Positions 10,981 through 52,041 are shown, counted from the stretch's first letter. The stretch is 64,000 bases of DNA from Tubulanus polymorphus (GCF_964204645.1 NC_134034.1:8816962-8880961), one strand, 5' to 3'. Numbers and translations are program-made. The notes: generated from the letters alone by a model not told the origin.

Positions 10981-10994
10981 TAATTAATCAATAT

Positions 10995-21435: not shown

Positions 21436-21439
21436 TTGA

Positions 21440-29796: not shown

Positions 29797-29843
29797 TTAT
29801 TTCAACGTTTCGACTATATCCTAATAGTCATCTTTAGGAATAA
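29797..29843 (-). ncRNA. Degenerate minimal hammerhead ribozyme of the Penelope-like 3' end
   Basis: CTAAAGA-T-GACTAT(TAGGAT)ATAGTC-GAAACGTT; one core mismatch to CUGANGA. Confidence 0.6.
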
Positions 29844-30223
29844 TGAGATACTACAGAAATTATGAGATATAAGTAATAGGGGTAATAGGCTTTCAAGCCA
29901 AAGGTCGAACGGGCGGGTGAGTAAAAAATAAAAAACATGAAAATAATTACAATTTCTACTTGAATTAGGAGTGAAATTCGCGAGTACCCCTATTACTCTT
30001 AAAATAATCATATACATGAATAACATTTAAATTGACAGATTATTCAATATAAAAGTGTAAGCTCTAATAGAATAGATATATAGATATATTTACAACATTA
30101 TTTTATTATTTATATTTGTATGAGTTAGATTTTTAAACATTAAAAGTGTTAGTAAAGTGTGATTGAAATAATACATGATATAAATCATTGAACTAAAATA
30201 AATTAAACAATAAAAGACCATAC

Positions 30224-33168
30224 ATGGAAGATGTGAGAAATTATATTAATTCATTAGATAATAAAAAAGATATAGAGATAACCGAAGCATTTAAAAGTGA
30301 TATTGGTCCAGCAGCTAACGAGTTTAAATTTCATAAAGGAAAAACATTAGAAGAAAATAAAAAACATTTAGAAAATATGAAAGAAATAATAAAAATAATT
30401 ACAGATGTTGAATATCCTAAAATAAGTATATCAGTTAAAGTAAAGTTTATAAAATCTGAAGATAAACCAATATATAATATAAATTCTCATTCACAACATA
30501 TTATATCTAAACAACATATAGATGATAAATTAGATAAATGTTATGAAGTAAAAACTAAAATAGAAGAGAAATATTTTGAAGGATCTGGTTTAATATTTGA
30601 TGAAATAATATTTATGACTTTACATGTTTATAACACAAAATATAATAAGTTAACTAAATCAAAACCAATTGATGAAAATAATGTATCATATTATAAAGAA
30701 CCAGATATTGAAGCATCGAGTTATATTAAACTACCATTTAAAACTAATGCTGTAATAAATGTACAAAATGAAGATGATAAATGTTTTCTATGGGCTATGA
30801 TAAGTTGTTTACACCCAGTTGAAGATTATAAACAACATAGTTTTAGATTAACTCATTATAAACAATTTGAAAATAATTATAAGATAGATAAGTATCCTGT
30901 TATAATTAAAAACATCCCAAAAATAGAAAGAGATAATAATATAAAGATAAATGTATTTGATTTAATCAAATTACCAAATACAAAAGGTAACAATATAAAA
31001 CATTATACATTAGAACCTTTATATCTATCAAAAGATTATGATTCAAACGATGTTATAGATATACTATATTATGAGAATCATTATATGTGGATTAAACAAA
31101 TAGATTTATTCTTTAGAACAGAAAGTGATCATCATAATAAAATATATCTATGTAGAAAATGTTTACATAGATTCAGTAATGAAAGTACATTATTGAATCA
31201 TAAACAATTATGTGAAAATCATGATTGTTGTAAATTAGTTTTACCAAATGAAAAAGATAAAATATTAGAATTCAAAAAATATGATTACAAAAATAAAGTA
31301 CCATTTGTAATATATGGAGATTTTGAATCATTAAATAAAGAACTAACTGATCAAGATAGAAAAGAAATATATTATAAGAGAAAGAAATTAAATTCTAATG
31401 AAAATGATTTTTCAGATGAACCACCAAAAACAAATACTATTAAAAAGATTCATCAATCAGCTGCAGCTTTCGGGTTATATATTAAATCTGATTATCCAGA
31501 ACTAATTGAAAGTGAATATTATGATTATAGAAATGAAAATGTTATCAATCATTTTTGTGACTTATTAATTGAATATGAAATAAGATTTAGTAAATTATTG
31601 AATACAAATATAGAAATTATAATGACAGAAGAAGATAAAGAAGAATTTGCGTTTGCAGATAAATGTTATTATTGTGAAAAGATATTATTATTAACCGATA
31701 TATTCGAAAGGTTTAGAGATGTAAACCTAAAATATTTCAATATTGATCCTTGTCATTGTTATTCTAGTCCAGGTTTAACATGGGATTGTGGATTAAAATT
31801 TACAGATATAAAAATGGATTTGTTAACAAATATAGATCAATTACTATTATTTGAAAAATCTATAAGAGGAGGTGTTTCAGGTGTATTAGGTGATAGATAT
31901 TTCAATGTAAATGATAACCCTGGATATAAGTTATTATATATAGATGCAAATAATTTGTATGGTTGGGCAATGATGGAACCACAACCTCATGGAGTATTTA
32001 AAATAAGTGAAGTTTTACAGAATGAAAATAATGATAAATTTGATTGGAAGAAAAGAATTCTTGATATTGCAGATGATTCAGATACTGGTTACTTTTTTGT
32101 TGTAGATTTAGAATATCCTGAACATATTAAATTTAAATCTAGAAATCTAGCTTACTGTCCCGAACATAAAACTGTAACTCATGAAGAATTATCAAATTAT
32201 CAAAAAAGAATTAAACCTGAAAATCATATTCATACAGAAAAGTTAATGGTAACTCAAGAAGATAAATATAATTATGTAGTACATTATAGAATGTTAAAGT
32301 TTTATCTAAAACAAGGAATGATCCTAAAAAAAGTACATAGATATATTTCATTTAGTCAATCTAAGTGGTTAGAAAAATATATAGATATTAACACCAAACA
32401 GAGAACTGAAGCTAAAACTGATTTCGAAATAAGACTTGTGAAAATATTAGAAATAGAAATGATATTGAGTTAGTAAGTAATGGTAAAAGAATTAGACATT
32501 TACAATCATATCCTAAGTTCATTGGTAACAGAATATTTGATGAAAATTTAGCTGCAGTTAAAATGAGAAGAACATCAATGAAATTTAATAAACCAATCTA
32601 TGTTGGTGCTTCAGTTTTAGAAATATCAAAGCTATTGATGTATGAATTCTATTATAATGTATTACGACCACTTTTTGGAGAAAAACATATAGAAATATTA
32701 TATTGTGATACCGACAGTTACATATTAAAGATAAAAACTGATAACATAACTGATGATTTAAAAACATTAAAACATCATTTTGATTTCAGTAATTATCCTA
32801 AAGATCATGAATTGTTTAGCAATGATAATAAAAAAGTTCCCGGTAAATTCAAAGATGAATTAGGTGGTGAAGAAATGATAGAGTTCATAGGTATTAGATC
32901 TAAAATGTATTCATATAAAACTAAAGAACATGAAGCTAAAAAGTTAAAAGGAATAACCAAAAGTGTAGTAGAAAAGAATATTCATTTCAAAGATTACATC
33001 AATTGTATATTCAATGAAGAAGTTAGGAAACATAAGATGAGATGTTTAAGATATGAAGATCGTGAAATGTTTATTGAAGAAATTGAAAAGATAAGTCTAT
33101 ACCCATTTGATGATAAAAGATATATTTTAGATGATGGAATTCATACAGTTGCTTATGGTTGTAATTGA
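30224..33168 (+). pseudogene. polB: Protein-primed family B DNA polymerase, inactivated
   Basis: EGSG, NEDDKCFLWA, IYGDFES (ExoI), SIRGG, YIDANNLYGWAM (A), KPIYVG, YCDTDS (C); ExoII region and motif B missing; frameshift near 32430. Confidence 0.95.
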
Positions 33169-33269
33169 GATGAATACTTAAAATTTAAAAGAGAAGAAAC
33201 AAAAGAGAACGAGATAATGAAAAGAATTCTAACGTGTTAATCAAATTTTAATAAAAATATGTATTATAA

Positions 33270-33619
33270 ATGGAGAGTAAACACACAGTGAGAACAACAA
33301 ATCATTTCTAGATAGAATAAAAGATACTTCAAATGTCAAATCAGTAGATTATAAATTTAAGAAGTTAAAAGAATTAATAATCCATAAGAAATATCTAATT
33401 ACAAATATTGATACAGTTACTAACAAATATGGAGATAAATTAGTTATACACTTAGAATATAAAGGATTAAAAGGAAATACATATAAATTCAGAACATATT
33501 TACCAGATAGATTTCATAGATTATCAAGTGATGATTTAGAAGAATTATGTTCTGGAGATTTCTATTTCGTATACAAAGGTAAGAATGAGAAAGGACATCA
33601 TGAAATAGATTTCGAATAA
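33270..33619 (+). pseudogene. Small Polinton protein (possibly OB-fold ssDNA-binding), frameshifted near the start
   Basis: FKKLKEL..KKYLIT..NKYGDKLVIHL..TYLPDRF; second copy at 21440-21706. The fold assignment is a guess. Confidence 0.55.
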
Positions 33620-33636
33620 GAAAATATGTAAAATAA

Positions 33637-34397
33637 ATGGTAGAATTAAAAGAATACAGAATATTTGTTGATTCAAGAAGGCTTACAAATTATAAATCAC
33701 ATAATTTACTAGTACAATTAGATAGAGAATTCAAGAATTGTGTAGATTTAAAATTAGTAATATAAGTTTATGTAATTCTTTTTATAATATAACGAATAAA
33801 ACTATTGAACATAGAGCCTTTTTAATTTTTGATAAAGGTAAAAATGAATGGTCCTATATATATTTAAAACCGGGGTTATATTATTTAGATACATTAGCAC
33901 AAGAAATTAATAGAAAAGCCTGGCACAAATAAGGTAGTAGTTCTGGGTTTAGTATTAGATTTTTTAAAAGTGATAGTTCTGATAGAATAAAGATAAGGTT
34001 GTCTAATAGTGAAAAACATAAATTTATGGTAAAAAAACCTATAGCTAAACTGTTAGGAATTCTTCCAGATAGATCTTTTAAAGATATTGATGATGTTACA
34101 CCAAACTTAATACCTTACACACACTTTTATATTTATTACAATTTAATCGATCCTACAAAAACATTCGAAGCAACTAAAGATATAACTTGTAATTCTGGTT
34201 TACTAAACATTTTACCATTGAAGAATGTTAAAGAATTTGGAACGCAAATAAATTATAATTTAACAGAATGTGATTTCAAACCATGCATACCTCGTTTTAA
34301 TAATTTTAGATTAGAAATTAGAAATCACAATGGATATTTAATAGATTTGAATAACTTTCCTGTAATTTATGAATTAGTTATAAGATGTAGAGAGTAA
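33637..34397 (+). pseudogene. Minor capsid (penton-like) protein, disrupted
   Basis: N-terminal IFVDS..SHNLLVQL and C-terminal LLNILP..FRLEIRNHNGYLIDLNNFPVIYELVI pattern of Polinton pentons. Confidence 0.7.
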
Positions 34398-34414
34398 TTT
34401 TTTTCACTATATAA

Positions 34415-34759
34415 ATGAATATAACTGTTGGACCGAGTATATGTTTTGGTTTTGATTTTAAACATGGTAAAGAAATGAGAATTAAACTAAATGATGTAAT
34501 TACTGATATAAAAAGTAAATCATTTAACAATGCATCAATGATTAATAAAGAAAATTATAATATAGAAAAAGTAATTGATTTAATTAAATCACCTTTAGAA
34601 TATTATGAATTAAATGAAGATGGAATTATTGATGATATTAAAAACATATTAACCAAAATATATGATAATCATAAAAGTAGTAATGAAATAAATGTTGAAT
34701 TAATCATAAATAAGTTAACTAAATATTTTGATGATAGTAATGTTTTGATAAATAAATGA
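34415..34759 (+). CDS. Polinton hypothetical protein
   Basis: 114-aa ORF with T-tract + TATAAATG start. Confidence 0.6.
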   Translation: MNITVGPSICFGFDFKHGKEMRIKLNDVITDIKSKSFNNASMINKENYNIEKVIDLIKSPLEYYELNEDGIIDDIKNILTKIYDNHKSSNEINVELIINKLTKYFDDSNVLINK

Positions 34760-34977
34760 GTGATAATAAGTGGATAATAACTGGATTATATAATGGAGCA
34801 TTACTATCAGTTGGAACTGTTGGTTATTCAATGGTATTAAAAAAAGTATTCAAAATGGGAAGTGTTAATGTTGATAGATTTGATATAAATGATATTTTAA
34901 AATTAACGTTAGCAGTTACTTTATCTAATTTAACTATTGATTATTTGGAAAAACAAAAACATATTCCTCCCATATAA
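34756..34977 (+). CDS. Small hydrophobic Polinton protein
   Basis: 73 aa, two hydrophobic segments, TAAATG start. Confidence 0.65.
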   Translation: MSDNKWIITGLYNGALLSVGTVGYSMVLKKVFKMGSVNVDRFDINDILKLTLAVTLSNLTIDYLEKQKHIPPI

Positions 34978-35001
34978 ATGCATATTTATTTTACTAAATA
35001 A

Positions 35002-35433
35002 ATGGCTTCTGCAGTTATAACTATTATAGGATCGGCAATTGTTAACGCTTTAGCATTTACTGGTGGTGGTTATTTATTTAAGCATATTGATAAAAATGGA
35101 TCATTAACAGAACAAAAAAGACATAACTTAGCATTTAGCATTAGAAAAATACAATAAAGCAGCGGAAGAATATAGAGAAAAAAGAGGCAAAACTATATGG
35201 ATTACATCAATAAAGAATTATATGATCAGAAGATTTCACATAGAGATTTTCAATCAGTTGATGATGCAATGAGTTTATATAACGCAGTAAGCAATAAAGA
35301 AAAATTACATCTACATAAACCTACAATATCAGATTATTATACCCCAAGTAATGAACAGAAGAAATATGAAATAATATGGATTTTAGGTGGAACAGTTATT
35401 GTTATATTTGTGGCGTATAAGTTTACTAATTAG
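35002..35433 (+). pseudogene. Polinton membrane-type protein (VNALAFTG...KRHNLA), frameshifted by a 7-bp duplication
   Basis: MASAVITIIGSAIVNALAFTGGGYLF; TTAGCATTTAGCATTAG at ~35128; C-terminal hydrophobic helix. Confidence 0.7.
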
Positions 35434-35454
35434 TAATTTTTTTTTGCTAAATAA

Positions 35455-35889
35455 ATGGAAGATAAAGTTGATAATATTGATATTATTCCTCATGATATAA
35501 ATAAAACTAAATTAAAAATATATTTAGAAAAACAAATATTAGAATTTGAAAGTGACTTAAAAGTTAAAAAGAAAAAATATTTAAAAAGTAAAATTATATA
35601 TTATTTGATTATAAGTGGTTCGGTTACAATGAGTTCTGTAATAACATTTCTAGCAATATTCAGTCCATTAACACCTTTAGCTATATCAATTGGTGTATTA
35701 GGATTATCATCAAGTGTTTTAACCGGTATAAGTTCAAAATAAAATATAAAAAGTAATAAAGAAAAAATTAAAACTAATATAAAAGAAATTAATAAATTAA
35801 AGAATACATTAGATTATATAATAAGTTTAAATGGTCATATAACAGTTGAAGAAAAAGATAAATTATCAAAAGAATTAGTTAATTATTAA
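35455..35889 (+). pseudogene. Two-TM Polinton protein with premature stop at 35740
   Basis: Frame continues past the TAA to 35889. Confidence 0.6.
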
Positions 35890-35905
35890 TTTTTTAGTTA
35901 TATAA

Positions 35906-37225
35906 ATGGCAGACAGTTTTCCAAAAGCTTTCCAATATAATAAATCAATTAAATATAATATTCCAGCAATAGATTTTAATAAAGATATTACATACAGAAA
36001 TGAAGTTTTAGATTCATTAATTGATTGATATATTTATGCTACTGAAAGTAATAATTTTCATGTAAAGATGGAAAATATATTTCATGTGTATACAATTAAT
36101 TTCAAAAATTTAAATGAGGCAAAACAATGGTTATTAAAATCTAATATGAAGTATTGGCAGAACCAATTAAATTTTGCTGTTTATTGCGCAACAACAGGAT
36201 GTGGTATTAGTTGGAATGGTCATTTAAACAAACCAAGTTTACCATTGATGTTATCACTTTTTAGATTTCATACTTATTTTCAAATAAAATTAATATTAGA
36301 TGAATTAGAATGTCCTTTACCAGGTTCAAAATATTTTAAAGAATTGAATAATAATATTAATTTTTCTAAGTTTTATAAAATATGTAATGAATTTAATATT
36401 AATTCAAATAAAGATTTTAGAGCAGAAATTGGAACAATGGGTGGATTAGGAATATTATATACTAAAGTATTTGGAAAAATAATGACAAATTCAGATATAA
36501 GAACACTAAATTGGAATGAATTACCAAAATATTATAATAATATACAACAACAAAACAATAATGGTTGGGTTAATTTCATTTTAGAAAATAATGAAGGTTT
36601 TACAAAAGCTGGAATACAAAGAATAAATCAATCTATTAGAACTTATTTGATATGTATTTTAGGCGCGCAAGTTGAAACAAGATCCCCAATAGTTGGAAAT
36701 GATAACACTTCATTCGATGCGCAGAAACAATTCAAAGTATTATTTGAAGATTCAATTCACAATGATAAAAATAGATCGATTCCAGAAAACATTGTAAGAT
36801 ATCAAAATTATTTAGATAAATCACATATTAGATTAAATTATTGTATAGGCCCTAATCTATTTATTATTTCTAATGATTTAGTATTAAAGATGGGAAATAT
36901 AATTGGTTACAATAATCTAATTAAAACTGCAACAATAAATAATTCATTTGGATTGAATGATATAAATAAAAAGATAATTACTGCTCCAAAATTAATGGAA
37001 GGCGAAAAAAATAAAAACATATTCAATCAACAGAAACTAAAACTGAGAATATTAAATTAGATAATGATTCTAAAATAAAAGATTACAATACATCAGAAAA
37101 TATAAAAACTGATATTATTCAACATGATATAATTAAACTAAATGATGATAATAAATCCCATGAAAATGCTAAATTAGCTTTAACTTGTATAGGAATTGTA
37201 ATCGGAGGAATATTATATTTTAAAT
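35906..37225 (+). pseudogene. Polinton protein with a WQNQLNFAVYCATTGCGIS motif, disrupted
   Basis: TATAAATG start at 35906, in-frame stop before ORF 36068-37060, frameshifted hydrophobic tail. Confidence 0.65.
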
Positions 37226-37246
37226 TTTAATTTTTTTATTATATAA

Positions 37247-38658
37247 ATGGATGTAGAAGATATTCCATTGGAGGATCCTTTAGATAAACCTGGTATAACT
37301 GATGAACAACAACCTGATTTTAGTGAAATAAGTTTTAATGATGGTAATGAGCCAGGACGTAAATCTAATTTAAATACACCTGCATATATTGATAAAACAC
37401 GTTCAAAGATAAGTATTGAAAATGAAGTACCAGAATTAACAGAAAAAGAATACAAATATAATGAAATTATTCGTGATTTTAAACCAATGTTAAAAAGATC
37501 TGGTTTCAATATAACAAATAAAGGTATGAATTATTTAGTAAAAGATTTGAAATATTTTAATGGTGATTATTATTGGAAATTGAAAGGCAACTATTATTTT
37601 AAGATTTCAAATCTTAAAAGTACCGATAAAATAATGAAACAATCAACTTTTAATTTATTAAAACAATCTAGAATTAAAAAAATCGTTAATGATGTTATAA
37701 CTGATGATAATATAATCAAGAGATGATAATATAAGAGAATTTAAACAAAGAAATGATTTTGAAGATAATTAATGAAAATTTAGAACCAGAAACAATTACT
37801 AAAGAAGTTATTAATTCCAAAACTAGTGAACCTAAATCAAGAAGAGTTCAAACTGAAAAACTTTTACCAAATGGATTACTTGATGCAACAGATCAAGAAT
37901 TAGAAGATTTAAATAATATATTTTCTGTTGATGTAATTAGAGAAATTGAAAGAATAAGACATGCATCTGATAAAATTGCGCATGATAAAAGTATAAGAGA
38001 TATTGAAATTAGAAATTTAGAAATAGAATTAACTGATAAAAATAAAGAAATAGAACAATTAAAGTCTGATCTTGATCGTCAAGTAATTGATGAAATGGAA
38101 TATAGGAAAAAAGAATTCCGTTTGGAAAAAGAAATTGATGATTTAAAAGATATTTTAGAAGTACTGAAAGGTGAAAGAGATATATTATTAAAAGAATGTG
38201 GTAATAATTTTAAAAAATTAAAAGATGTTTTTAAAGATTTGTTGATAGAACCAGATTCTAAAATATCGTTGAAAGATAGAATAAGATTATTATTTAAATT
38301 AGAAGGAATAACAATTCTTTCAATTCTAACAGCTGTAACCATGTTATTTACAACAATTGGTTTAGCAATATCAAATGCTTTGAAATCTACTCCTACTCCC
38401 AATAAACCGGATAAACCCCCAGATAATTCTATACAAGATAAAGTTAAGGATGGTTTAAAGAAATTAGCAAAATATTTATGGGAACTATCTAAAAAATCTG
38501 CTGCAGCATTACCAGGAATTATTGCATCAATTGTTGGTTTTATATTGAAATTTACAGGAAACATTATTAACTTTGCTGCTGAACATATTATTTTATTTTT
38601 AATTACAGTTGTAAGTGCTATTATTATTGGATTAGTAAACATGATAAAAAATACATAA
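37247..38658 (+). pseudogene. Coiled-coil protein with C-terminal membrane helices, split into two ORFs
   Basis: ORFs 37247-37726 and 37753-38658; heptad-like E/K-rich region followed by 2-3 hydrophobic helices. Confidence 0.65.
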
Positions 38659-38678
38659 TTAATTTTTTTGTTAAATAA

Positions 38679-39926
38679 ATGAGTGGGAGTTATATCAATC
38701 CTTCTAAGAATCATAGAATATCTAATGCTATTAAAGCAGAAAGATCACATCATATAATTACTCATAACCCTTCTAATATTAATCCTGATGAAACTTTATA
38801 TGTTAGAATTCCTCAATTAACACAAAATACTTTTTATGTTCCAAATAGTATTTATTTATCAGCCGATATAAAAGTAACCGGTAATAATAATAATTATGTT
38901 GTTGATAATGTTGGAAGATATTTGATTAAAAAATTAACTATAAAGATTGGTCCAGAAACAGTTTTCTCATTAGATGATTATAATTTATTTATGCATTATA
39001 AAGATTTATGGTTAACTAAAGAAAATAGAAATAATATGATATTACAAGGAATCCAATCAGAAAACCAAAATAAATTAAGATCTGAAGCCAATAATGCAGT
39101 AGTAACTAATGCTGTAGATAATTTGATAAAAAAGATTTATGGAAACAAATATAAAATTCCATTAGACTTTGAATTGATAAATAATAATGCACCTTTATAT
39201 AAATACGCAATTCAAGAAGACGTTATATTCGAAATAACATTTGCTCCTGGTAATGAAATTGTATTATCTAGCGTTGTTAAAGATATGAGTTATGAATTAT
39301 CGAATATATGTTTAGAATATGATACAGTAACTGATGAAAATATTTCAAGTATAATTCAAACTAAATACAATCAAGGATTTTCATAATTATATGATTATAT
39401 TGATAAATTCAAAACTGTAACTATTAATGCAAATGATGAAATAATCAATGAGAATATTAACTTCCCAAGAAGATCTATTAAAGGTATATTAATATTTTTT
39501 ACCATTGCAACATATACTAATGGCGCAATAAATGTTGATAATTATTATAATCCTGAAATAACAAAAGTAGAAATAACTATCGAAGGAATAGCAAATAAAA
39601 TATTTTGTCAAGGAATGAGAATGATTGATCAATGGCCAGAAATTAGAAAACATTTTATGAATGAAAAAGTAAAATCATCTGAAAATTGTAATATTAATCA
39701 AATTGATTATTATACCGGTAATAAATATGCATTATGGTTAGATTTTAGAACAACAGAGGATAATTCATTACATGGTTCTGGAAAAAAATTACAAAACACT
39801 AAAGATGGAATACAATTATTCATGACAAAGAAAAAAGGAAGCCTAAATTTTAAAATGCACATTTATATTATATCTGACGCGCAATTAAATATTGTAAATT
39901 CTCAATTAAATAGTGTTATGTATTAA
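38679..39926 (+). pseudogene. Major capsid protein (double jelly-roll type), one premature stop at 39384
   Basis: ORFs 38679-39386 and 39615-39926 share a frame (~415 codons); ITHNPS, LEYD, INENINFPRRSIKGIL, ALWLDFR..LHGSG..ISDAQLNI motifs. Confidence 0.8.
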
Positions 39927-39958
39927 AATTTTAACTTTAATAAAAATTTATATAATAA

Positions 39959-40839
39959 ATGGAAGGAGGTAAAGTATATAAACATATTCCATACATCGAT
40001 ACGCATGAAAATAATGATGGTTTATATTATGTAATACCTTGTAATATAGCTTTGATATTTGATCCTATTTTCAAAATTTATAAAACTAAACTAATAGAAA
40101 TAGATAATAATAAAAGTGGTGTTGTTGATAATTTAAGTAATGTATACCTTCTACATCTAATAATGTAATACCTTCTACATCTAATAATGTAATACCTTCT
40201 ACATCTAATAATGTAATACCTTCTACATCTAATAATGTAATACCTTCTACATCTAATAATGTAATACCTTCTACATCTAATAATGTAATACCTTCTACAT
40301 CTAATAATGAAATAATATTAAATTTTAGTGAAAATAGAAATTATTGTGGATATTGTAAAAGTGAATTTTCAAACGCTACATCAAATTGGAATAAACATAT
40401 GAATACAAGGGTACATATAAATAATGTTATAAAACGTGTTGGTTTAAAAGAATTTATAGAACACCCATTTAGATATGTTACAAAGTTTGTTTCAAATCAA
40501 AAAGTAAATGGTGAAAAAATATATGAAGATTTATTATTAGCAACACCTAATAAAGATGAATTAGATCTAACCGATGCTAATGAAATATTAAAACCAAACA
40601 CTGTAAATGAAATATAAGGAGCAAACACTAATAAAGATAATAATGAAAATGGTGCCATACGGCACCCACATGGTGATATAGTTACAGATATTGATAATAA
40701 AGATTCTATGAAACATAAAGAAGAAACTATTGATGATGCGGTAGAAAGGATGAAAAAGTATAAAAATAAAACAACTATTGACGATGATACGGTAGAGAAT
40801 TTGAATAAATTTTTAGGGTCTGATAGTGAAAGTGATTAA
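39959..40839 (+). pseudogene. C2H2 zinc-finger protein with VIPSTSNN octapeptide repeats, disrupted
   Basis: 1-nt loss at ~40144; the repeat frame runs into YCGYCKSEFSNATSNWNKHMNTRVH; stop at 40615. Confidence 0.65.
40145..40309 (+). repeat. Perfect 24-bp minisatellite, ~7 copies
   Basis: TACCTTCTACATCTAATAATGTAA from 40145 with period 24. Confidence 0.95.
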
Positions 40840-40871
40840 AATATTAATTATATTTAACACAAATAATAATA

Positions 40872-41335
40872 TTGGTTGAAAATTGTATAAAATAATAGTA
40901 AATAAAAAAGGGGGTTTTAAGTATTTAAGGTATTTAAGGTATCTAATACATATCTAATACAATCTAATACAATCTAATACATAAAATATCTTATTTTATA
41001 AACTGATATTCATATGGAAATTGAAACCTCAGTAATAATAAATAACCTTTATTATTTTCAAACTTATTCATATATTAGTTGAAAAAATAAAAATAAATTG
41101 GTTGATAATTGTATAAATAATATTTATTTTAAAAAAGGGGGTTTTAAGTATTTAAGGTATCTAATAGGGTATCAGGTATTAGGGTATCAACTAGGGTAAC
41201 AGGTATTAGGGTATCTAATAGGGTATCTAATACATAGGTATACAAATAGTTATTTTATAAATTTATATTCATATGGAAATTGTTATCTCAGTAATAATTT
41301 TGAACCTTTATTATTCTTTAATTTATTCATATATT
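40872..41335. repeat. Diverged tandem duplication covering the ATPase 3' end and the convergent intergenic region
   Basis: TTGGTTGA.AATTGTATAAA...AAAAAAGGGGGTTTTAAGTATTTAAGGTAT at 40872 and 41098; TTATTTTATAAA...ATTCATATGGAAATTG at 40991 and 41250. Confidence 0.8.
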
Positions 41336-41861
41336 CATCATGTAACTCAGTAGGTATAATTTAATTTTCTTCCAATGATTGCTGCATAGATTTTTTATCT
41401 TTGTTATAAAATAAAACTAGAAATCTTATATTCTCCCTAAAGTCTTTAACAATTGTATTATATTTTTGATTTAAAACCCATGTTGTTATCCCAAAATGTC
41501 TCCCAGAGAAAGCTAGATAACATAACTCACTTTCTCTAACTTTTGAATCATGTAAATGTGCGCAATCATCTACAATGAATAATGTATTTGATCCTTTATA
41601 AGTATCAATTGCTATTTTAATACAATTATCTAAATTTTCTTTTACTGTTTTAGGATCTAATATAATAAACTTTTTTATCTTAACTATATCTCTATTATAT
41701 GTTTCGTTCATTTCATAAGTAGGACAGAATAATATTATATTATCAAAATGATTCTTATAAATAGTTTCTAACAAATCTAATATGAAATGTGTTTTACCAC
41801 AATTGGTTACTCCAGTAACTAACATATTATGCGGTTCAAATATAAATAAATCTTTATTCAT
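41250..41861 (-). pseudogene. A32/FtsK-like packaging ATPase with premature stops near the C-terminus
   Basis: Walker A GVTNCGKT, Walker B FIVDD, GRH..TWVLNQKY. Confidence 0.9.
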
Positions 41862-42966
41862 TTATTCTTTTAATTTTACTAGATAAAATCCATTCATTAA
41901 ATTTATCATCATATCCTTTATATTTCACCAAAGAATACTTTTTTCCTTTAAGAGTTTTTGTTTTCAATACTTTTTCTATTTTGTATTCTATTTCATCTGG
42001 ATTTGGTACAAGTGATAATTCTTGTTCATAGAAATAACCTAATATTTCTTCATCTTTTAGATCTTCTAATTTATAAACAAAAGGTTTAGTTAATATTATC
42101 TTTTTAATTTTAAATATTTCTTCAGTAAAATTAGGGGTATAACCTTTATAAAAGGTTTTTCTATATTTAGATATTCTTACGTGTTGTCCAATTTTGAATC
42201 TAGGTTCACCGAAATCATGTGTAACAAACGCGCCATATAAATTATTCCATACTATTTCTGAATTATCTTCTTTTCTAGCTTGTATAGGTTTCATATTTAT
42301 AGAAGTATGTTTAGAATTATTATAACCTTTCACTAAATCATCTAATACATCGATATATTTACATGTTTCATTAGCAGTAAAATATTTCCACATTCTAGTT
42401 TTCAATGTTTTATTAAATCTTTCTATAATAGATGCTTTTTTATCTGAGTGTGTTGAAAAATATTCTACATCGTTATCAGATAATAGTTTTTTAAAATGTT
42501 TGTTATAAAATTCCTTACCTTCATCAAATTGTATCTTATCTGGAATAGCTTCTTTAAATATTGATTTAAAAGCATTTGTCACTTCTATACCAGTTTTATT
42601 TTTGATTGGAATTGACCATGCGTATCTACTGAATATGTCTATAACATTTAATATCCAGAAATATCCTTTGTTGTATTCCTCTAAGTTCTTCATGTCAATT
42701 AAATCTGCTTGCCATTGTTGATCAATATGTGAAACCATAACTTTTCTTGTTATATAAGTTTTATCCATTTTCTTGTGGATTTGATATGTTGGTTGATTTT
42801 GTAACCATGATTTTAACTCACTATATTTTATATCACCATGTGGGTGCCATACGGCACCATTTTCATTATCAGATTTAATTTTATCCCATAATTCTGAAAC
42901 GCTAGAATATGATACTTCACTTTCTGGATTGTAATATAAATCTCTTAAATATTGTTCTTTTTTCAT
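41854..42966 (-). CDS. Retroviral-like (rve) integrase with C-terminal chromodomain
   Basis: WQADLIDM, IQFDEGKEF, IERFNKTLK (DDE); YKIEKVL...VKYKGYDDKFNEWI. Confidence 0.95.
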   Translation of the reverse strand: MKKEQYLRDLYYNPESEVSYSSVSELWDKIKSDNENGAVWHPHGDIKYSELKSWLQNQPTYQIHKKMDKTYITRKVMVSHIDQQWQADLIDMKNLEEYNKGYFWILNVIDIFSRYAWSIPIKNKTGIEVTNAFKSIFKEAIPDKIQFDEGKEFYNKHFKKLLSDNDVEYFSTHSDKKASIIERFNKTLKTRMWKYFTANETCKYIDVLDDLVKGYNNSKHTSINMKPIQARKEDNSEIVWNNLYGAFVTHDFGEPRFKIGQHVRISKYRKTFYKGYTPNFTEEIFKIKKIILTKPFVYKLEDLKDEEILGYFYEQELSLVPNPDEIEYKIEKVLKTKTLKGKKYSLVKYKGYDDKFNEWILSSKIKRINE

Positions 42967-43024
42967 CTTCTTTTAATCCATTAATAATAATTTAGATTTA
43001 GTTTCAATGACTTTATGATTTGAC

Positions 43025-43348
43025 TTATTTTCTGGTATGATATTGATGAGGTTTATTGTCATTGGAATCATCTTTATCATCAGATTTGAATTTTGATTTA
43101 TATATTACACCGGATAATATAATAACTGTTACTAATCCAATTGTAATATATAATTTATAATTACTTCCAGCATTAGAAGAATCAGATGGATTATTATTTG
43201 AATTAATATCAGATAAAGTCTGTGATTCATTTATATCAGTTAATTTCTTTTTCTTAGCTTTTTTTAATTCTGAAGATCTTTTACCTAATTCTCTTGCCCA
43301 TTTAATTTGTTTCTCGGATCTAGGCTTTTTCTTAACGCCATCACTCAT
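43025..43348 (-). CDS. Small basic protein with one TM helix
   Basis: 107-aa ORF, TAAATG start, LYITIGLVTVIILSGVIY. Confidence 0.65.
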   Translation of the reverse strand: MSDGVKKKPRSEKQIKWARELGKRSSELKKAKKKKLTDINESQTLSDINSNNNPSDSSNAGSNYKLYITIGLVTVIILSGVIYKSKFKSDDKDDSNDNKPHQYHTRK

Positions 43349-43900
43349 TTATTTTAGTTAATTTTTGTTCTGATTCAGTTTCTGTTTCGACGTTTGGTTG
43401 TAGTACATCTGTTTCGTTCTTACCTGATTTATATTCCATGACACCAGTAGAAATTAATGTCATAACCGATCCTAATTGGAATGAAGCATAACCAACCCAT
43501 TTTTGTAATTCAGTCATAACTAAGTAGTCATTTTTCAAATCACTATATAATTTATTTTCGTCATTAATTGGTATTAACTGGTTACATAATTTTGAATAAC
43601 ATTTGACAATACCATCTGAAATAGAATCATTTATTCGGGCTAATCTTGCCTCTTCATAAATCTTAAAATATTTTATTACTTTATCTGGTTTCATAGAGTC
43701 TAATTCTTGAAAAGTAATAATTCTATTTAAAAACTCTTTAGATTTTCCACCGGCAATTAATAATTCAAGATGGTGTTTACAATATAAATAGTATTCATAA
43801 TCAATATTGTTATTAACTTGAATAGAATTAGAAACAACTGGATCCTTATTATCACTAATACCTATATTAAAACAGATATATACAATCGAGATTACATTTT
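43341..43900 (-). pseudogene. Polinton hypothetical protein (5' part disrupted)
   Basis: ORF 43341-43694; the frame extends upstream (LELLIAGGKSKEFL). Confidence 0.55.
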
Positions 43901-44108
43901 TTGATATATATATATATATTACAAAGACCTTCAGTGTTACAATTTTGTCCAGAATTCTTTAATTACTGGATTGTTTCCAATCATTTCTTCAATTTCTGGT
44001 AAATATCTGACCACTTCACTAAATGCTAATCCTAATATTTTGAATTTTTTCATATTTTATTAATCTACCTACTCTTCTCAGTTTTCTTTCAAAACCGGCA
44101 CTGGTATC

Positions 44109-44405
44109 TCAACTCATTTTCTTAGTTTTCGATTCTTTGAGTCCCAACAGCAATTTAAGTCGCGTTGCTGGTAATTTTGGTAATTGTAGTTCGCATGATG
44201 ATTGTTTATTACATATTACATCACTCAGAATTTTCACCATTTCTTGATGATAGTCCAAATGTTCTTGTAATTTTTGTGAAGTTTGTTCGTCAATTACGAG
44301 AGTTTCATCCTCCATTTCTATTGATTCCTGAGTTTCACTATCCAGCAGCAATCCTTCCTCACCCGTTGGTTGGCTTAGAATTTCTGGTTGATCTCTGTAT
44401 TCCAT
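44109..44405 (-). CDS. Acidic hypothetical Polinton protein
   Basis: 98-aa ORF with TAAAATG start. Confidence 0.45.
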   Translation of the reverse strand: MEYRDQPEILSQPTGEEGLLLDSETQESIEMEDETLVIDEQTSQKLQEHLDYHQEMVKILSDVICNKQSSCELQLPKLPATRLKLLLGLKESKTKKMS

Positions 44406-46123
44406 TTTAATCTAAAAGATGTCGTGAAAATGGATTACTGTACTTAAATATGTTTAAAGGTTTCCCTACTTCATAATATATGTACTTACATTTAGATTTA
44501 GAACTGTAAACTGTGTTTTGAGAGAGAATATCCAATACGTACTATGTATGTGAAAGTTGATTTCTAACTGCCGACGTGGCGCACGTTCGACCAAACTAAT
44601 TACTTCTGCATGTTTGCCTGGATTGTAACAGATGTTCCTTTGTGATCTAATTGATTAATCCTTTTCAACTGAAATAGCACATTCGACCAATATTCAAATG
44701 AGGTGCGCCCCATTCAACTGAATATGAAATACGGCACAGATGTTTTTGTAAACAACCTAATACAATTACATATAGGCGGTTTGACATAGATCGAGAGTAA
44801 CCGGTTTTCTAAGCGTTTAAGCTTCAACGTATTTTTCATTATGTGTTGAGTTCCATAATTCAACAAATGTCTTTGCTTTATCCAATTGATCTAAATATAA
44901 CTGTAAATCTAGTTTGTTAGATTTAATTATGTTTTCCTTCTTTTCTAAAGGTCTTAGATTCTTCCAATTCCAAATAAGTTTTTTATTGTATTAATCATTC
45001 ATGTCAAATTTAGAAATCGGCAACACGTGATCAATATGAAAGTATTCACGATAATTATCTATATTCATTTTATCATCGAATTGATATATTATCCATGATT
45101 TGAGAAATTCATCTGAACAACCCAACAAATTAGATAATGTTTCTGAATGTGTTTCTTTGTTGAATAATTGTGTTAATCTAGATCTTAAGCATTGTTTCAA
45201 TCTAAAATTAAGATCTGTTTGATATCTTTCTCTCATATATTCTGTCATATAATCATTGTAAGCTTCTCTATTATCTTCTCGATATTGTTTGGTATATAGT
45301 TTAGTACAAGTTTTACAGCAATATTGAAAACCATCTTTGCTAATCTTACGCTTATTAAATTCTGTTATAGCTTGTGGGGCTTAGAACCTTCTTAGCTAAG
45401 AAATAAACTAAAAATCCACGGTATTTAGTTCAAGGTCGTCATATGCGTTTACTACAGCGGAAACGATTAACTACAAAATACAAAAAAGGGAATATAAGGA
45501 CACTTAGTATTTAAGATATTAAAACAAAAGATAAAAATGAAGTAAGTGAAACCTACCGACAGTGAAGCCACGGCGACAAAAATAATAAAACTATGCGCCC
45601 AAAGCGCCCGAAAGACAATCGCCGCGAACACGCCAAAAAATATCTCCACCGACCTTGGGGAGACGGACCGCAGGCCGGACCAGCGTAAACTAAAACGAGC
45701 AGCCGGCTCGGGGCATACATATCACCGACCCCCGAAATTGCCCAACCAATTTCTCACAATTAACTATCATAATAAAATGAACTTATCTTATGCCTAGCTT
45801 CACTGAAGGCAAGATCACGATACCATCAAAAGATACACTATTCTTATCTATCATCAAATACTTCAAAAAATTTAACTAAACTAGAAAATTACAACTTCTT
45901 AATAACAAAATTAAGACGTTTAAGCCACTTGAAATGTCAAGAGCATGATACACTCAACACCAATACATGCTATAGTCCCCTTTTACATTAAATACAAAAG
46001 TAAAATGCAAAAATCAAATTCTGACTCAAGCATAATACAAAAACAAGATCAGTAAATTTATCAATTAAATTACTTAAATGACAGATTAAACTCGAGAAAT
46101 ATAAGTATTACAAGTTTTTAGCA

Positions 46124-47400
46124 TTACTCGGCTTCTAATAATAAAACCAACTTGTGAATCGGACGTACAAGTTCGTTATTGAATGTTTTAACCTTTACAG
46201 ATCTGACAAGCCCTATGGAGTCAGGATAGGTTTCAATGACTCTTCCCATGGCCCAACTATGTCTTGAGCCACTATCGGCCAATAAAACTACATCATTAAT
46301 CTGGACATTACGTTTAGGTGACTGCCATTTCTGGCGCTCCTGTAAAAGAGGAAAGTACTCAGCTAACCACCTGCGCCAGAACTGGTCGGTTAGATACTGG
46401 ACACTACGCCAGCGTTTATGCACATACAAATCATTTTTTACAAATAGACCTGGAACATCACAACTAATACCTCTACCTAGTAAAAGGTGATTGGGAGTTA
46501 GTGGAGGATTATCAGTCACGTCACCTGACTGTCTCGTAAGAGGCCTTTTGTTCAAAATACATTCAACTTCACACATAAGAGTAACCAGAGATTCATCAGT
46601 TAAACGACCCGGGTGCTCTTTGAGCAGCCCATATAAAACTTTCCTAACATCTCGTATAAGCCTTTCCCAGATCCCCCCAAAATGTGAACCTGTAGGTGGG
46701 TTAAACTCCCACTTTACTCCTAATTTCTCTAATACATAACTGATTTTATCCGAATCAAGCTTTTTCAATGACAATTCTAATTCTGACTTAGTACCTACTA
46801 AATTTGTACCATTATCTGAACGAAGGGAGCGTACCGGCCCCCGTCTAGCTATAAACCGTCGGTACGCATCTATACACGAGTATGTCTCTAAGGAATGAGC
46901 AATTTCTAAATGTACGGCACGCGAAGTCATACAGGTAAAGATTACGCCATAACGTTTTACTTCGGATCTTTTGTGCTTAATTACGAATGGTCCGAAATAG
47001 TCAACACCTGTACATGAGAATGGTGGTTCTCGGATAGCTAGTCTTTCTGACGGTAGATCGGCCATTTTTTGTTGACAAAGTCTACCCTGGTATTTTCGGC
47101 ACGGAACACACTTTCCAAGGATAGATTTCACAAGACCTGGTCCACCCTGAATCCAGTAATTCTCACGCAGTTTGCTTTAAACAGCTTGTTTTCCCAGGTG
47201 GCCCATATCGGCATGGGTTTCACGTATCAACAGTCTCGATAAATGTGACAATTTCGGCAAGATAATAGGATGACGAGCTTCAAACGGAACACTTGCTCGA
47301 CTAGTACGTCCGCCTACACGCAGAATACCCAATTCGTCTATAAATGTGTCGAATTTATGCAGCGGACTACACCGTTTTACACGCTTCTTTTCATCCTTCT
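46124..47400 (-). pseudogene. BEL/Pao integrase
   Basis: LRVGGR, HPIILP, VDYFGP, RAVHLE, SDNGTNL, GGIWER; one stop near 47177. Confidence 0.92.
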
Positions 47401-47700
47401 TTAAAGGATTTGTGACACCTAAATTATTTCTGCGGTTTTAGTTAGTATGAATAAAATTATTACCGACAATATTTACGAAAATTAGAAGCAATGAACGTTT
47501 ATATGGTTTTGAGAGCGATTTTGATGGAAAATCTCGCACAACAGTTGAAGCGCGCATCTTCGGGCATTTCCGTCAAACATCGGTGATGATGACGTATAAC
47601 CGAGAAGACGAACGCGGAAGTGGCTCATTGTACAACGAAGGATTGACTAGCGCGGACGATATATTATTCGATTATTCTGTTTTTTCTAAGTTTTTCGATC

Positions 47701-50610
47701 ATGCCTCGTCGTTGTGTTTACTACAATTGTAGTTCAAGTAATCGCTCTTTGTTCTGGTGGCCACGGGATACGGTTATTGCGCGTAAATGGACCGCATTTG
47801 TGAGCAGAAAGAGAGCACAATGGAAGCCCTCATCCACGAGTGTATTGTGTGGGAGGCACTTCACCAACGATTCATTTACGAACTATTCAATGTTTACTTC
47901 AGGATTCGCGACTAAGTAAGTCTTTTAACATTCAATATTTAAAATAGAAGCAGTATTGCTATCTCATTCTTTTCATCAGGTCAGGTTAAAAAGTGTTTCA
48001 GTACACGGAAACTGGGTCAGGTCCTTTCTTTGTTCATTGCTTCGTTTAGACATGTTTTCTGACTAACTGGTCTAGTAACTGCCTTCCCGACTCATTAATT
48101 GATGTATCATGGCTGGTTTTACAAGCTGCTCATATTGATTGCCTGAGGACTAAATGGACCTCCTGACTCGATGTTAGGTCTACACTTAAAACCTTGAAGC
48201 CTAATCTAGTATGCAAGTATAACTATCATATTTTGAATTCCATTTAGATTACATTTGAAGCCAGATGCCATCCCTACCATTCACATAAATGACGACGATG
48301 ATAACAGTCAATCAGATACCACTAAAAGACCAACGTACGCAAAACGAAAAAGAAAAGAGTTGGTGGAAACTTTAGTAGCTGATACAGTATCTAACGAAGA
48401 GTTACAGCCTTCTACATCAACCGCTGAAACGTCATACAGTCCGACAGCTGATACATCAACCAGTCCAACATCATCACCAGATAGGCCTCCCAAGTTTGTC
48501 GAAAAATCGTCACAGAAAGATATTGAAGCAGAAACCAAAGGTAAATTTCACTATATCATAAAAAATTCATGCTACAATAATTTTCTGGCATTCCATTTAT
48601 ATTTTCAACCTGATTTTTAGAAATTATGTTGTGAAAAAGTCTGTAGGTTATCTGAGAATAATTGGCGTATTGTTAATCGATGTTTTATTTGTGTCATTAA
48701 AGGTAATCAAACGCTTGCATGGAGACCGAAATGTAATCGACGACACTATCCGAGTCAGGGTAAATTAACAAGGAAGAAAACAACTGGCACACAAATGACC
48801 CCTAAAATGTTTAAGCCTTCGTATGATAGCACCGATACCGACGTATCCAGCGATGACGAATACTTCGACGATGATTCCGATTATGATCCAGGTGAAGATC
48901 CTAATGGATCATCTTCAACTGAATTTGACGATGAATAGTCCTTTATAATAATATTAGTTCTTACTTATAAGAATATAATCTTATTATTCATTTAGTCAAA
49001 TGAGGTAACGTCATCAAACGCTATGGAAATAGAAGGTCTGAAACGTGCTGCAGAACGATTGAAGACATACGAAATCACAGCTTTCATTAGCGATATGCAC
49101 CCTTCAGTGCATAAGTGGGCTCGAGACACCTGGAAAGTATCTCATTACTTTGATACCTGGCATTGTGTGAAGGGTAAGTCAATTATCAAATCAGAATCCT
49201 GTTATAACATCCCGCTCTACTTTGAATCAATATCAATTTCACTTGGTGTTAACTCATTCTGGTATGAGAGCAACAGACATTTATTTTCTGTGTAATATTA
49301 TGTTTTGCAGCAGTGATTAAGAAACTCGAGAAACTCAGTAAAAAGAAAGGTCTCGAAGATATCCAAGCTTGGATACAAAGTATCCGAGTTCACCTGTATT
49401 GGTGCGCTATGTCGTCGAAACCTGGGGACCATGAGGATATAAAACGAAAGTGGGAAACCTGTTTGGAACATATTTCAAACAATCATGAAAACTGTATGCA
49501 TGGAGATTATGAAAAGAAAAAAAAAATGGATATTACCAGGTATCTATGATAACCAAAAGTCTTCATAAGCTATTGACTTGATACATGGGTGATTAGTTGC
49601 ATTTTACATGTACATATTATATTTCGTCATTTTTCTAGATACATATGCCGCAAGTGAGCTCGAGAAAGTAATGAAAAACACCAGAACAGTGAATCAAATC
49701 GGAAATATGTCATCGTATGGTCAGACGAGCTCTGTAGAAGCATTTCATAATGTGTTAAACCACTTTGCACCTAAGATGATTCACTTTTCATATATTGGAA
49801 TGCTTAGCAGGTTAGTAAAAAGTAGCTGTGAATAGCTTCAACTTGTTAAAACACTCAACATTCGTCTAATAAATTAGTGTCTTTCTTTAATTTTTTTAAT
49901 TTCCATAAACCTAAAGTGCGTGGGACATGAACCTGAGACTTATAAATCCTTCGTGGCTTTGTTTTGGTTCCAACTCGCTAGTGTTGCCATCTTTTGGTTT
50001 TTATTTTAACTTACTACATCTGTATGATTTCAAACCAGGCGATATGGAATAAATAAAATATTCAGATAATATTGTCACATAAAATATGAAAAATGATTTC
50101 ATTTTTAGGATGTGCACAGCAATCTTGCATTACAACGAAAATAGCGGCAGACTTCAAGCTAAAACTAAAGATGGGAATGAGCGTTTCACTGTATTTTATC
50201 CAAAACACAAAGATGGTCACACGCTTCGTAGAATATTGACCAAAGCAACATATGGTAGGTCACAATTGGATGCATATTAGAACCCTTTGATCATCGATAG
50301 TTTATAAACATATCATTGAAGCCTGTCTATAATTGAAAGCGGATCCTCATTTGCTTCATCAAATATCTTTTTAGGTTATGTCGATGAATGCGTTGTTGCA
50401 GCAATAAAGATTGCAAACAAGGAAGTCGAAGTGAGTGATTACTGTACTCCTCCACCTCATTTGAGTTCTCAAAAAGTGAAAGTAACCAAGGAAGAAGCCA
50501 TAAACCAGCATTTGTCTCGCTTCAAGAAAGTTACAGAAATCGTGCAATCGAAGCCTCAATCCTCAGGACCAACACAGCAACAGAAGAGAAAAAGATCAAA
50601 TAAACTGTAA
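47701..50610 (+). pseudogene. Spliced THAP-domain Kolobok DDE transposase with the central part missing
   Basis: THAP (C..C..WP..W..LCGRHF..DAIPTI); SNAMEIEG, SDMH, FDTWH, HLYW, TSSVEAFH, HFAPK, LHYNEN exons with GT-AG introns; stop at 48937 and frameshift at ~49520. Confidence 0.85.
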
Positions 50611-50705
50611 TCAAGATAACGATTAATGAAAAACTAATTCCTGAAATAATTTGTCCGTTTTATTTAATAAAGATACTTATATTATTATTTACACACATAA
50701 TTCAC

Positions 50706-51806
50706 TTAGTCGTCCAGTTTTGGCAGCCTGAATCCTTTATAAATGGCGAATTCTTCATCACCGTCTTTCGGAAAGTGTGCCCGGATGCACGAAACAACAC
50801 AAGATGGCAAAGTAACCCTTATCTTAGGTCCACAGAATCCCCAGCACCAACGAACAAACTGGCGATACGCAATATGTCTGTATTTATCATTGGTCTGGCC
50901 TTCAAATGCTCTTCTGCCGTATTGGTTTCTATAACCACTCCAGGCTGTTTGAAGAACCCAGACATGTAGGCACACCCCCTTAAATCCATCGGTGTCAGTG
51001 ATGCAGTTGTATTCCCTGGAATCGTATCCTTCGAGTTCTCGAATTTTCCCGGCAACAACATCTATCTCACTGCAACACACACATTCCGGTTCTGTTGTTA
51101 GAATTTGACAATGGGTACATGTACACCTGTGAAAATAAATTAAAACATTCCATCAAGACATGAAAGGTGGATCTAATTATTTCTCGTCTGGGTCTAACTG
51201 CAGTTTGGGTCACCTTTCCACTGTGTGACGCTAGTTGTTAACGTAAGGTTAGGTACATAACCATTAGGGACACCTAAACTGCAGTCACTCCCTGGTCTGG
51301 AATGAGATATCGGGTAGGCTTTCTAGCAGTCTCTGATTGCCGTTTTAGATGGCTTAGTTAGTTTATACTGAATTCCTTAGATACCGGCTGTACAAAAAAA
51401 AACTACAAAAGACTATAGAAAGCCTTCTGTTTTACTATTGGTTGACGGATGAATTTAATAACCGAATCCACCATTATCCTTAGATTGTGTCGCCCCATAC
51501 TTTGTTAACAACAATAGAAATCCCTTACCATTCATTGAACCGATGAACATCTAATCTAGAGATTCTATCCGGTCTATTGTCCGGTCTAGCGCCGTCTTCG
51601 TCATCGTCTGATGCATCAGGCTCGTACAAATACGGCGGCTCTGCAGCATTAAAAACGTCCATATCGGGCCCCATTTCGCCCACCTCAATTTCAGATGATA
51701 GTGCACTTTCATCTGAGAATTCTCTTTCGCTTATATTTTCGCTCACTTCGCTAGATGAGGATGAATAGTCGGAGGAATAATCACTGCATTCTCTATTGTC
51801 GGCCAT
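50706..51806 (-). CDS. kolX: KolX (P2X7 C-terminal ballast-like Cys-rich protein); exons 51806-51529 and 51126-50706, 232 aa
   Basis: Spliced WCTCTHC...ECVCC..E; YRHIAYRQFVRW...RVTLPSCVV..IR..FP; intact frame. Confidence 0.88.
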
Positions 51807-52041
51807 TTTGTTTCTGTTTGTTGTTCTCGGTTATACGTCATTCGATGACGTCATTGCCAACGCACGTGGCAATGTAGTCAAATGTAAACAAATCATCGGA
51901 ATTTCTATTAAAAGTCGTATTTAGACCAGTTAGCTAAACCGTAGAAATGTTTTATTGATATCAGTCCAATCTACGATGATTCATCTACCAAATTAATCAT
52001 TAAGAATGCAAAACCTGACTTATGTGTCACAAATCCTTTAA

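Follow-up and report, generated by a model that had tools for sequence, protein, structure and literature searches.

Introduction

Shared promoters mark virophage-helper pairs (PMC8547959). In mavirus, an integrated element with an rve integrase and a DNA polymerase of family B (PolB), the genes share the late promoter motif of its helper, CroV (PMC8547959). Here we describe 64,000 nucleotides of the genome of Tubulanus polymorphus (GCF_964204645.1, NC_134034.1:8816962-8880961; the window, meaning this whole stretch), in which a Maverick/Polinton provirus carries TAAATG over most of its start codons, a signal that is likely to be a poxvirus-type post-replicative promoter. Mavirus has a protist host, a TCTA motif, a helper of the mimivirus family and a dependence established by experiment, whereas in the window the host is an animal, the motif is TAAATG and the helper is hypothetical (PMC8547959).

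In vaccinia, late promoters place TAAAT(G/A), of which both forms are permitted (PMC5294985), over the start codon, with a core of Ts lying 5-7 bp upstream and a T conserved at the 10th base, and intermediate promoters combine an AT core, a 12-bp spacer and TAAA (PMC11980589, PMC5294985, PMC12917281). A related logic is found in the yeast virus-like elements pGKL1/pGKL2, Polinton-related linear DNAs with a TAAAN initiator and poly(A) made by slippage, but these encode their own polymerase and capping enzyme, use an early-type upstream element and have no capsid or integrase (PMC6211774).

Two groups of Polinton-type viruses come closest in gene content or proposed lifestyle. Polinton-like viruses (PLVs) have been found in entomopoxvirus occlusion bodies (PMC11296320). 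AHEV_PLV1/2 and CBEV_PLV1 are Polinton-type and proposed poxvirus hyperparasites, and the capsids of AHEV_PLV1 and CBEV_PLV1 adjoin Maverick group 2; they differ from our element in that they have a cysteine protease, lack an rve integrase and carry highly diverged capsids, and the accessible main text makes no mention of promoter, TAAAT or transcription (PMC11296320). Group 2, or Beta-class, Mavericks (adintoviruses) share with the window PolB (putative here), an integrase with rve and chromodomain, an A32 ATPase, a jelly-roll capsid, membrane accessory genes and a SLATT-like gene; the accessible parts of both texts hold no promoter analysis, and the window clade is set apart by TAAATG and hairpin ends (PMC8502044; bioRxiv 10.64898/2026.06.19.733378). 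In the open-access literature we found neither TAAATG promoters nor flip/flop hairpins reported for Mavericks. No virion of an animal Maverick has been seen, and at stake are their mode of expression and their status, as autonomous viruses or as parasites of larger ones.

TAAATG at the gene starts of an integrated Maverick

An island of 20-26% GC at 30-44 kb of the window is part of a single element (29872-57224) with terminal inverted repeats (TIRs), AG...CT termini and a 6-bp target duplication, GATATA, on both sides (29866-29871 and 57225-57230), all Maverick/Polinton traits. Pfam searches of the window's open reading frame (ORF) pieces recover the rve integrase (PF00665, E=9.5e-10, plus a chromodomain) and the A32-like packaging ATPase (Pox_A32, PF04665, E=2.7e-12). 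The predicted model of P0002, a protein 76% identical to the window capsid, is a double jelly-roll that matches iridovirus, PBCV-1 and mavirus capsids (E to 7.6e-16). With a putative PolB, these features identify the element as a Maverick/Polinton. It probably belongs to group 2 (Beta class), to judge from a gene content that includes no protease: the adenain-like cysteine protease, a group 1 trait, had no match among 31 window ORF pieces. That missing match and capsid relatives that are Maverick-type loci place the element outside the virophage taxon Virophaviricetes.

The initial annotation had read the TAAATG starts of this element as poxvirus-like and possibly dependent on a helper virus. 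TAAATG is indeed present at all 13 starts it listed: 33270, 33637, 34415, 34756, 35002, 35455, 35906, 37247, 38679 and 39959 on the plus strand, and 41861, 43348 and 56728 on the minus strand. These are 13 of the 15 identifiable starts of the window, the exceptions being PolB and the integrase. At seven of the 13 (34415, 34756, 35002, 35455, 35906, 37247 and 38679) a run of at least four Ts ends 6-7 nt before TAAATG, as had been claimed, against 2/36 of the element's non-start TAAATG (spacers 7 and 8). The combination T4-N6/7-TAAATG occurs eight times in 30000-44000, seven of them at gene starts (shuffle mean 1.07, maximum 5 of 300), twice in 29.9 kb of host flank and never in a long terminal repeat (LTR) retrotransposon nested in the element. 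This LTR element serves as an internal control: 0/11 of its ORF starts are TAAATG. Because a TAA before an ATG makes that ATG the first one after a stop, we gauged the resulting bias with short ORFs, which yield TAAATG in 33/399 cases in the element and in 4-6% in relatives.

The two other structural claims, that the genes are intronless and that no RNA polymerase is encoded, hold as well. Six window gene spans, compared with orthologous ORFs of a close relative (L003), match them without interruption, and Pfam found no RNA polymerase family among the 31 window ORF pieces.

A clade-wide trait

A capsid profile retrieved 83 loci, of which 45 reach the N-terminus of the major capsid protein (MCP) and 42 give a start. 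The MCP start is TAAATG in 21 of these 42, and in 13/14 loci at 52% identity or more (GC 0.20-0.44), the single exception having a TAAATG 4 nt upstream. The position of the start is well anchored, residue M1 being invariant in 49 capsids. A quick MCP tree accounts for the trait with 4 changes (13.8 when shuffled), and the window falls in a 15-row clade with an SH-aLRT (approximate likelihood-ratio test) support of 99. IMG/VR scans with the capsid returned no relatives. Capsid homologues annotated as Bartonella fall in the window's clade (P0046 cluster) and are probably host contamination of those assemblies.

The loci were then grouped by their capsid start, and only other homology-confirmed genes were counted. 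L002 and L017 (duplicates) and L014, L020 and L040 (partial or broken) were dropped from this count. Non-MCP starts are TAAATG in 30/35 cases in 12 close loci, in 10/11 in eight distant TAAATG loci (some of them near-duplicates) and in 0/57 in 19 other loci, for a construction null of 0.04-0.08. Of the six misses among the 46 non-capsid genes of TAAATG-type relatives (40/46 with the motif), four read TAAAT or TAAAAT followed by ATG; it is therefore TAAAT, and not an in-frame stop, that is kept.

These comparisons dispose of the three trivial explanations that the initial annotation had named. AT content fails, since the motif holds at GC 0.40-0.44 (L007, L008) and is absent at GC 0.26-0.28 (L026, L031, L037). 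Kozak bias fails too: the clade has T at -3, whereas relatives without the motif have A there in 60/87 long ORFs, so that the clade has moved away from Kozak. As for stop-start coupling, the TAA is the upstream gene's stop in only 2/70 cases, with overlap in 4/70 and separate genes in 64/70. The motif is almost certainly functional.

A bipartite signal

TAAATG is the downstream half of a bipartite signal, in which an A-then-T core at -18..-12 is followed, after a tolerant spacer and at a fixed distance, by the hexamer. G or C occupies 18/395 core positions (-16..-12) versus 94/316 in the spacer (-11..-8; p=1.5e-20), and the contrast persists in GC-rich loci (11/125 versus 48/100). The 9th base before TAAATG is T at 13/13 starts of the window and at 15/36 non-starts (p=1.4e-4), the corresponding figures in 14 close loci being 52/58 and 22/81; the 10th is T at 8/13 window starts and 43/58 in close relatives. 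A T-run lies 5-9 nt upstream at 29/54 starts of close relatives versus 6/72. A position matrix built from relatives discriminates between starts and non-starts, with p=1e-6 in the window and p=0.0015 in an IMG/VR contig described below, L204, although the latter split may just reflect intergenic AT-richness, and the matrix is not relied on.

The arrangement appears to be a close match to the vaccinia late layout: TAAAT(G/A) on the start codon, a T-run at 5-7 nt (here at 6-7 nt in 7/13) and a fixed upstream T, together with an A-rich form whose spacer is 12-14 nt here (PMC11980589, PMC5294985, PMC12917281). It differs in that the promoters, with predicted starts, belong to a 16-kb integrating element without a polymerase, and in that the fixed T is the 9th and not the 10th base (PMC11980589, PMC5294985, PMC12917281).

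The division into two promoter classes survives in part. Within the window the 10th base splits the starts into eight with T (the seven-gene virion block and 43348) and five with A (33270, 33637, 39959, the ATPase and 56728), but the split is weakly conserved in orthologues. The five with A are compatible with the intermediate pattern, in which the 10th base is not T. Four genes had been assigned an A-tract form. TTARTAA does stand 12-14 nt upstream at 33270, 39959 and 56728, and 33637 is only a loose fit. Two of these three are homologous copies: 33270 and 56728 derive from a single module at the inner end of the TIR, so there are fewer independent A-class cases than listed. The A form is kept in 3/3 orthologues of 39959/33637, including those of the 39959 gene in L001 and L004. 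The start of the A32-like ATPase has an intermediate-like form, and vaccinia A32L is an intermediate gene; the window capsid has a late-type start, and here vaccinia differs, its D13L being intermediate. Overall, the poxvirus-type interpretation is backed by a signal that is clade-wide, independent of GC, contrary to Kozak and provided with a T core at fixed spacing; its division into classes is backed only partly.

Sister lineages and a pox-like contig

A sister lineage shares the gene set and uses another signal: 12/18 of its genes, against 7.6% of ATGs, have TATA within 16 nt of the ATG, with a T-rich core before it. In two of its loci (L016:623-9361 and L019:1-9012), T-core and TATA 1-14 nt before ATG occur at 18/19 hand-picked starts. 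This lineage carries a VLTF3-like gene (L016:6543-7049, L019:5082-5576), and 10/11 family members match PF04947 (best E 3.3e-6); VLTF3 genes in polintoviruses have been reported before. The asfarvirus late motif is likewise TATA-like (PMC11788076), and the L016/L019 lineage is a candidate for asfarvirus-type dependence. Two further groups have TATA-A-rich starts in 6/11 and 6/10 cases, and GC-rich groups have few (3/25 and 0/9).

A motif scan of IMG/VR gave at least 120 stretches, with the flanks of 80 examined. Among the matches listed, a divergent pox-like contig of 17.6 kb and GC 0.19 (L204/L114) stood out, with 11/16 ORF starts being TAAATG; it encodes Pox L3, an F10-like kinase, an A32 ATPase and an NAD-dependent ligase. 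Its comparison with window proteins gave no tblastn match, and IMG/VR scans for its relatives return L204 alone. It is a control, not the helper.

Proposed transcription by a helper virus and its alternatives

We lean towards the view that a helper virus supplies the polymerase for these promoters, a cytoplasmic one of pox type, as CroV does for mavirus. The promoters would be read in the cytoplasm by RNA polymerase and late factors that a co-infecting pox-like virus provides, transcription would begin within TAAAT, and polymerase slippage would add a 5' poly(A) leader, removing the unfavourable T at -3. An initiator overlapping the ATG needs a leader added by slippage, as pox-type polymerases make, which argues for a cytoplasmic helper. 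The provirus would be silent until such a helper infects the cell; transcription, replication and packaging would then take place in the helper's factory, with reintegration by the element's own integrase, as for mavirus with CroV. Genes with the A-rich form might be expressed earlier, in intermediate-like fashion, than the virion block, the weakest step of the scheme.

Several observations weigh against this scenario. No helper virus was identified, and neither domain searches (31 window ORF pieces and ORFs of relatives) nor a structure search found a gene transferred from a poxvirus to the element. The accessible text on coral polintoviruses describes expressed core genes and notes no helper (PMC11131425). 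PolB and the integrase of the window start without the motif, and the integrase makes up 3/6 of the misses in relatives. The conserved T is displaced by one base from the published 10th position, an offset that disappears when one counts from the first A, and T-run spacing is not enriched in distant TAAATG loci (5/24 versus 4/38). Orthologues conserve class only weakly (T in 28/32 versus 8/13, p=0.06), and the 33270 and TIR-proximal genes have T-class orthologues elsewhere. The pox-like contig has no T enrichment at the 9th or 10th base (5/11, 6/11). The VLTF3-like gene belongs to the sister lineage, outside the TAAATG clade, and its L016 copy scores under the Pfam cut-off. Finally, near-duplicates occur among the relatives, and the non-start controls sit in coding DNA, so that intergenic AT-richness may account for some of the upstream contrast.

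The strongest competitor, although we think it unlikely, is a nuclear promoter for the host's RNA polymerase II (Pol II), perhaps with a factor encoded by the element and very short leaders, the pox likeness being convergence or shared ancestry. The element does integrate in the nucleus at high copy, 4/13 starts read TATAAATG, and polintovirus genes are expressed in corals (PMC11131425). However, no TBP or TFIIB family matched in 31+5 window pieces or 25 ORFs of relatives, and T at -3 is disfavoured among other relatives. Moreover, at the distance that Pol II keeps between TATA box and start, a TATA box at -5 would place transcription initiation downstream of an ATG whose position is fixed by homology.

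Still less probable is the same promoter logic with a polymerase from another source, either an asfar/ego-like virus or a cytoplasmic linear element of the pGKL2 type that is autonomous and serves a dependent partner. Yeast virus-like elements use a TAAAN initiator, slippage poly(A) and a pox-related polymerase (PMC6211774), the sister Mavericks carry an asfarvirus-like TATA, and flip/flop hairpins are also known in asfarviruses and phycodnaviruses (PMC11788076). On the other hand, it is the late promoters of poxviruses that have TAAATG fused to the start codon behind a T core (PMC11980589), and there is no such autonomous element among the 83 loci, which are short and capsid-selected.

A role in translation or RNA processing is improbable. 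The TAA would be an insulating or re-initiating stop, AATAAA the poly(A) signal of the upstream gene, and the T-tract a terminator or a trans-splice acceptor. It could draw on the 9/13 starts that read AATAAATG, on virion-block intergenic gaps of 16-32 nt and on TTTTTNT, matched by T-tracts in four gaps. But the rarity of TAA as a gene stop (2/70) and the out-of-frame TAAAT+ATG variants speak against the first function, and the poly(A) and trans-splice readings were rejected: AATAAA is equally frequent at divergent starts (6/14 versus 18/40 elsewhere), and a YAG acceptor precedes 1/13 starts. First genes in the TIR also bear the motif, and a T core at fixed distance suits recognition of DNA. 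Coding strands hold few TTTTTNT (5, against 39 on the opposite strand), a depletion that we put down to A-rich coding bias and did not use.

That the motif is a compositional artefact of an element with 23% GC is next to impossible: 36 of the 48 TAAATG in its 15.5-kb left part do lie away from the listed starts, but the loci with the motif at GC 0.40-0.44 and without it at GC 0.26-0.28, the shuffles and the short-ORF nulls refute it.

The signature is real and non-trivial and apparently undescribed, and probably reflects virophage-type promoter sharing with a hypothetical helper. If helper-supplied transcription is true, animal Mavericks of this kind would live as parasites of a virus. A clade-wide poxvirus-type promoter leads one to expect pox-like viruses in hosts not known to have any, and promoter type offers a means, from sequence alone, of sorting Mavericks by helper type; the idea is directly testable. 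More tentatively, and with the odds somewhat against it, a widespread clade of animal Mavericks could be endogenous virophages of poxvirus-like viruses, with neighbouring lineages adapted to helpers of other kinds: TAAATG would go with pox-like viruses, and ATG-proximal TATA together with VLTF3 would go with asfar-like ones. Their promoters would then record undiscovered large DNA viruses of invertebrates, and the proviruses may form an inherited antiviral defence in animals.

Hairpin termini

The claim of hairpin ends was borne out, both ends of the element bearing mismatched hairpins in flip/flop orientation. The right one has a fold z of -22.8, with 0/200 shuffles as stable. At the main mismatch clusters, in the inward direction, the sequence agrees with arm A at the left end and with arm B at the right; this pattern is broken at two positions near the tip. 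At the terminus, 1271 reads show a second hairpin form. Poxvirus telomeres are mismatched flip/flop hairpins, and the window's terminal hairpin resembles them in its mismatches and its two inverted-complementary forms (PMC8956199). It differs in being an opened palindrome of 267 nt in an integrated copy, in an element with a Polinton-type PolB. The ends could correspond to flip/flop telomeres or, alternatively, stem from fold-back priming in strand-displacement replication. Each TIR also has only one match, ~130 nt inside and pointing inward, to the late-promoter-like resolution-site pattern of poxvirus-type telomeres. A related element's terminal fragment (21400-21918) sits in a Pao element; its hairpin differs in sequence and shares the design, and its TIR-end promoter reads TAAAATG.

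Gene content and genomic setting

The features of the window are collected in Table 1. Many genes carry stops or frameshifts: the copy is broken and unable to complete the proposed cycle alone.

Table 1. Location of the element, its genes and promoters, and associated features in the window
Feature	Coordinates	Strand	Remarks
Maverick/Polinton provirus	29872..57224		~16 kb minus nested LTR element; termini AGT...ACT; TIRs and target duplication
Left TIR	29872..30230	+	29872-29998 an internally deleted terminal hairpin copy, arm-A form outermost
Putative PolB gene	30224..33168	+	split into two frames; start TACATG; 41-42% to 1176-aa ORF in L030
A-tract TAAATG promoter, TTARTAA + 12 nt	33243..33272	+	start-proximal frameshift in gene 33270-33619; homologue of TIR-end module
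A-rich TAAATG promoter	33612..33639	+	gene 33637-34397, broken; orthologue L003:565 retains A form
T-tract + 7 nt + TAAATG	34395..34417	+	gene 34415-34759
T4 + 6 nt + TAAATG	34736..34758	+	overlaps upstream gene's end; putative small membrane gene 34756-34977
T-tract + 6 nt + TAAATG	34982..35004	+	gene 35002-35433, broken
T-tract + 6 nt + TAAATG	35434..35457	+	gene 35455-35889, broken, two transmembrane (TM) segments, SLATT-like in orthologue
T-tract + 7 nt + TAAATG	35886..35908	+	gene 35906-37230, broken; conserved 440-aa family, C-terminal TM
T-tract + 6 nt + TAAATG	37227..37249	+	gene 37247-38658, broken, coiled coil and TM
T-tract + 6 nt + TAAATG	38659..38681	+	major capsid gene 38679-39926, in-frame stop 39384-39386
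A-tract TAAATG promoter, TTARTAA + 12 nt	39932..39961	+	zinc-finger-like gene 39959-40839, broken, 24-nt tandem array
A32-like packaging ATPase, truncated	41361..41885	-	TAAATG at 41861 within integrase 3' end; 10th base A
rve integrase with chromodomain	41854..42972	-	first ATG 42966, without TAAATG
Small TM gene	43025..43372	-	TAAATG at 43348 within 3' end of 43341 gene
Conserved ~200-aa family gene	43341..43958	-	start region broken, left out of start counts
Nested BEL/Pao LTR retrotransposon	45373..56650	-	boundaries approximate; from repeat comparison and domain matches
First gene inside right TIR	56650..56755	-	A-tract TAAATG at 56728; split by LTR element, resumes 45380-44991; HNH-like in orthologue
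Inner right TIR	56720..56957	-	ends in A-tract TAAATG promoter module
Right terminal imperfect hairpin, 267 nt	56958..57224		begins inward with arm B, inverted complement of left form
Related element's terminal fragment	21400..21918	-	shorter hairpin 21766-21918, TIR-end promoter module, start of 33270-like gene

The ORF that we take to be PolB had no Pfam match, its polymerase motifs being recognised by eye; its TACATG sits at the position homologous to the TIR promoter. An old PolB remnant lies at 14053-14121 (75% identity to 32073-32141). The gene at 33637 is probably the minor capsid protein, given its size and position; penton and membrane protein labels, which draw on size and hydrophobicity, are putative. 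L003:2541, the orthologue of the 35455 gene, matches SLATT_fungal (E=0.0013). The 440-aa family of the 35906 gene (L003:2996-4324) has 1321 homologues and a confident predicted fold (pLDDT, the model's confidence score, 83.6) with a C-terminal membrane anchor, for which a structure search gave no match.

The genome harbours many insertions of the element, as its ends continue into many unrelated flanks: whole-genome reads under the same species label cover it deeply, and 1806 and 1569 reads exit its two ends into unrelated flanks (flank agreement 0.34). The insertion target (29700-29871 and 57225-57330) is itself a high-copy repeat, with 731-1013 reads joining both flanks directly.

Both the integrase (41854-41864) and the 43341 gene (43341-43351) terminate in I-N-E because the TAAATG of the next gene occupies their last codons. 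Between the converging gene blocks, at 40880-41340, lies a duplicated unit of ~260 nt with short GGTATCTAATA-type repeats, possibly a terminator or origin region. L003 has a deoxynucleoside kinase (10340-10981; PF01712, E=1.7e-31) behind a T-tract TAAATG start, and in L006, L009, L011-L013, L041 and L048 divergent genes are paired across a single ~30-nt spacer that bears TAAATG on either strand, its central A/T core serving both directions.

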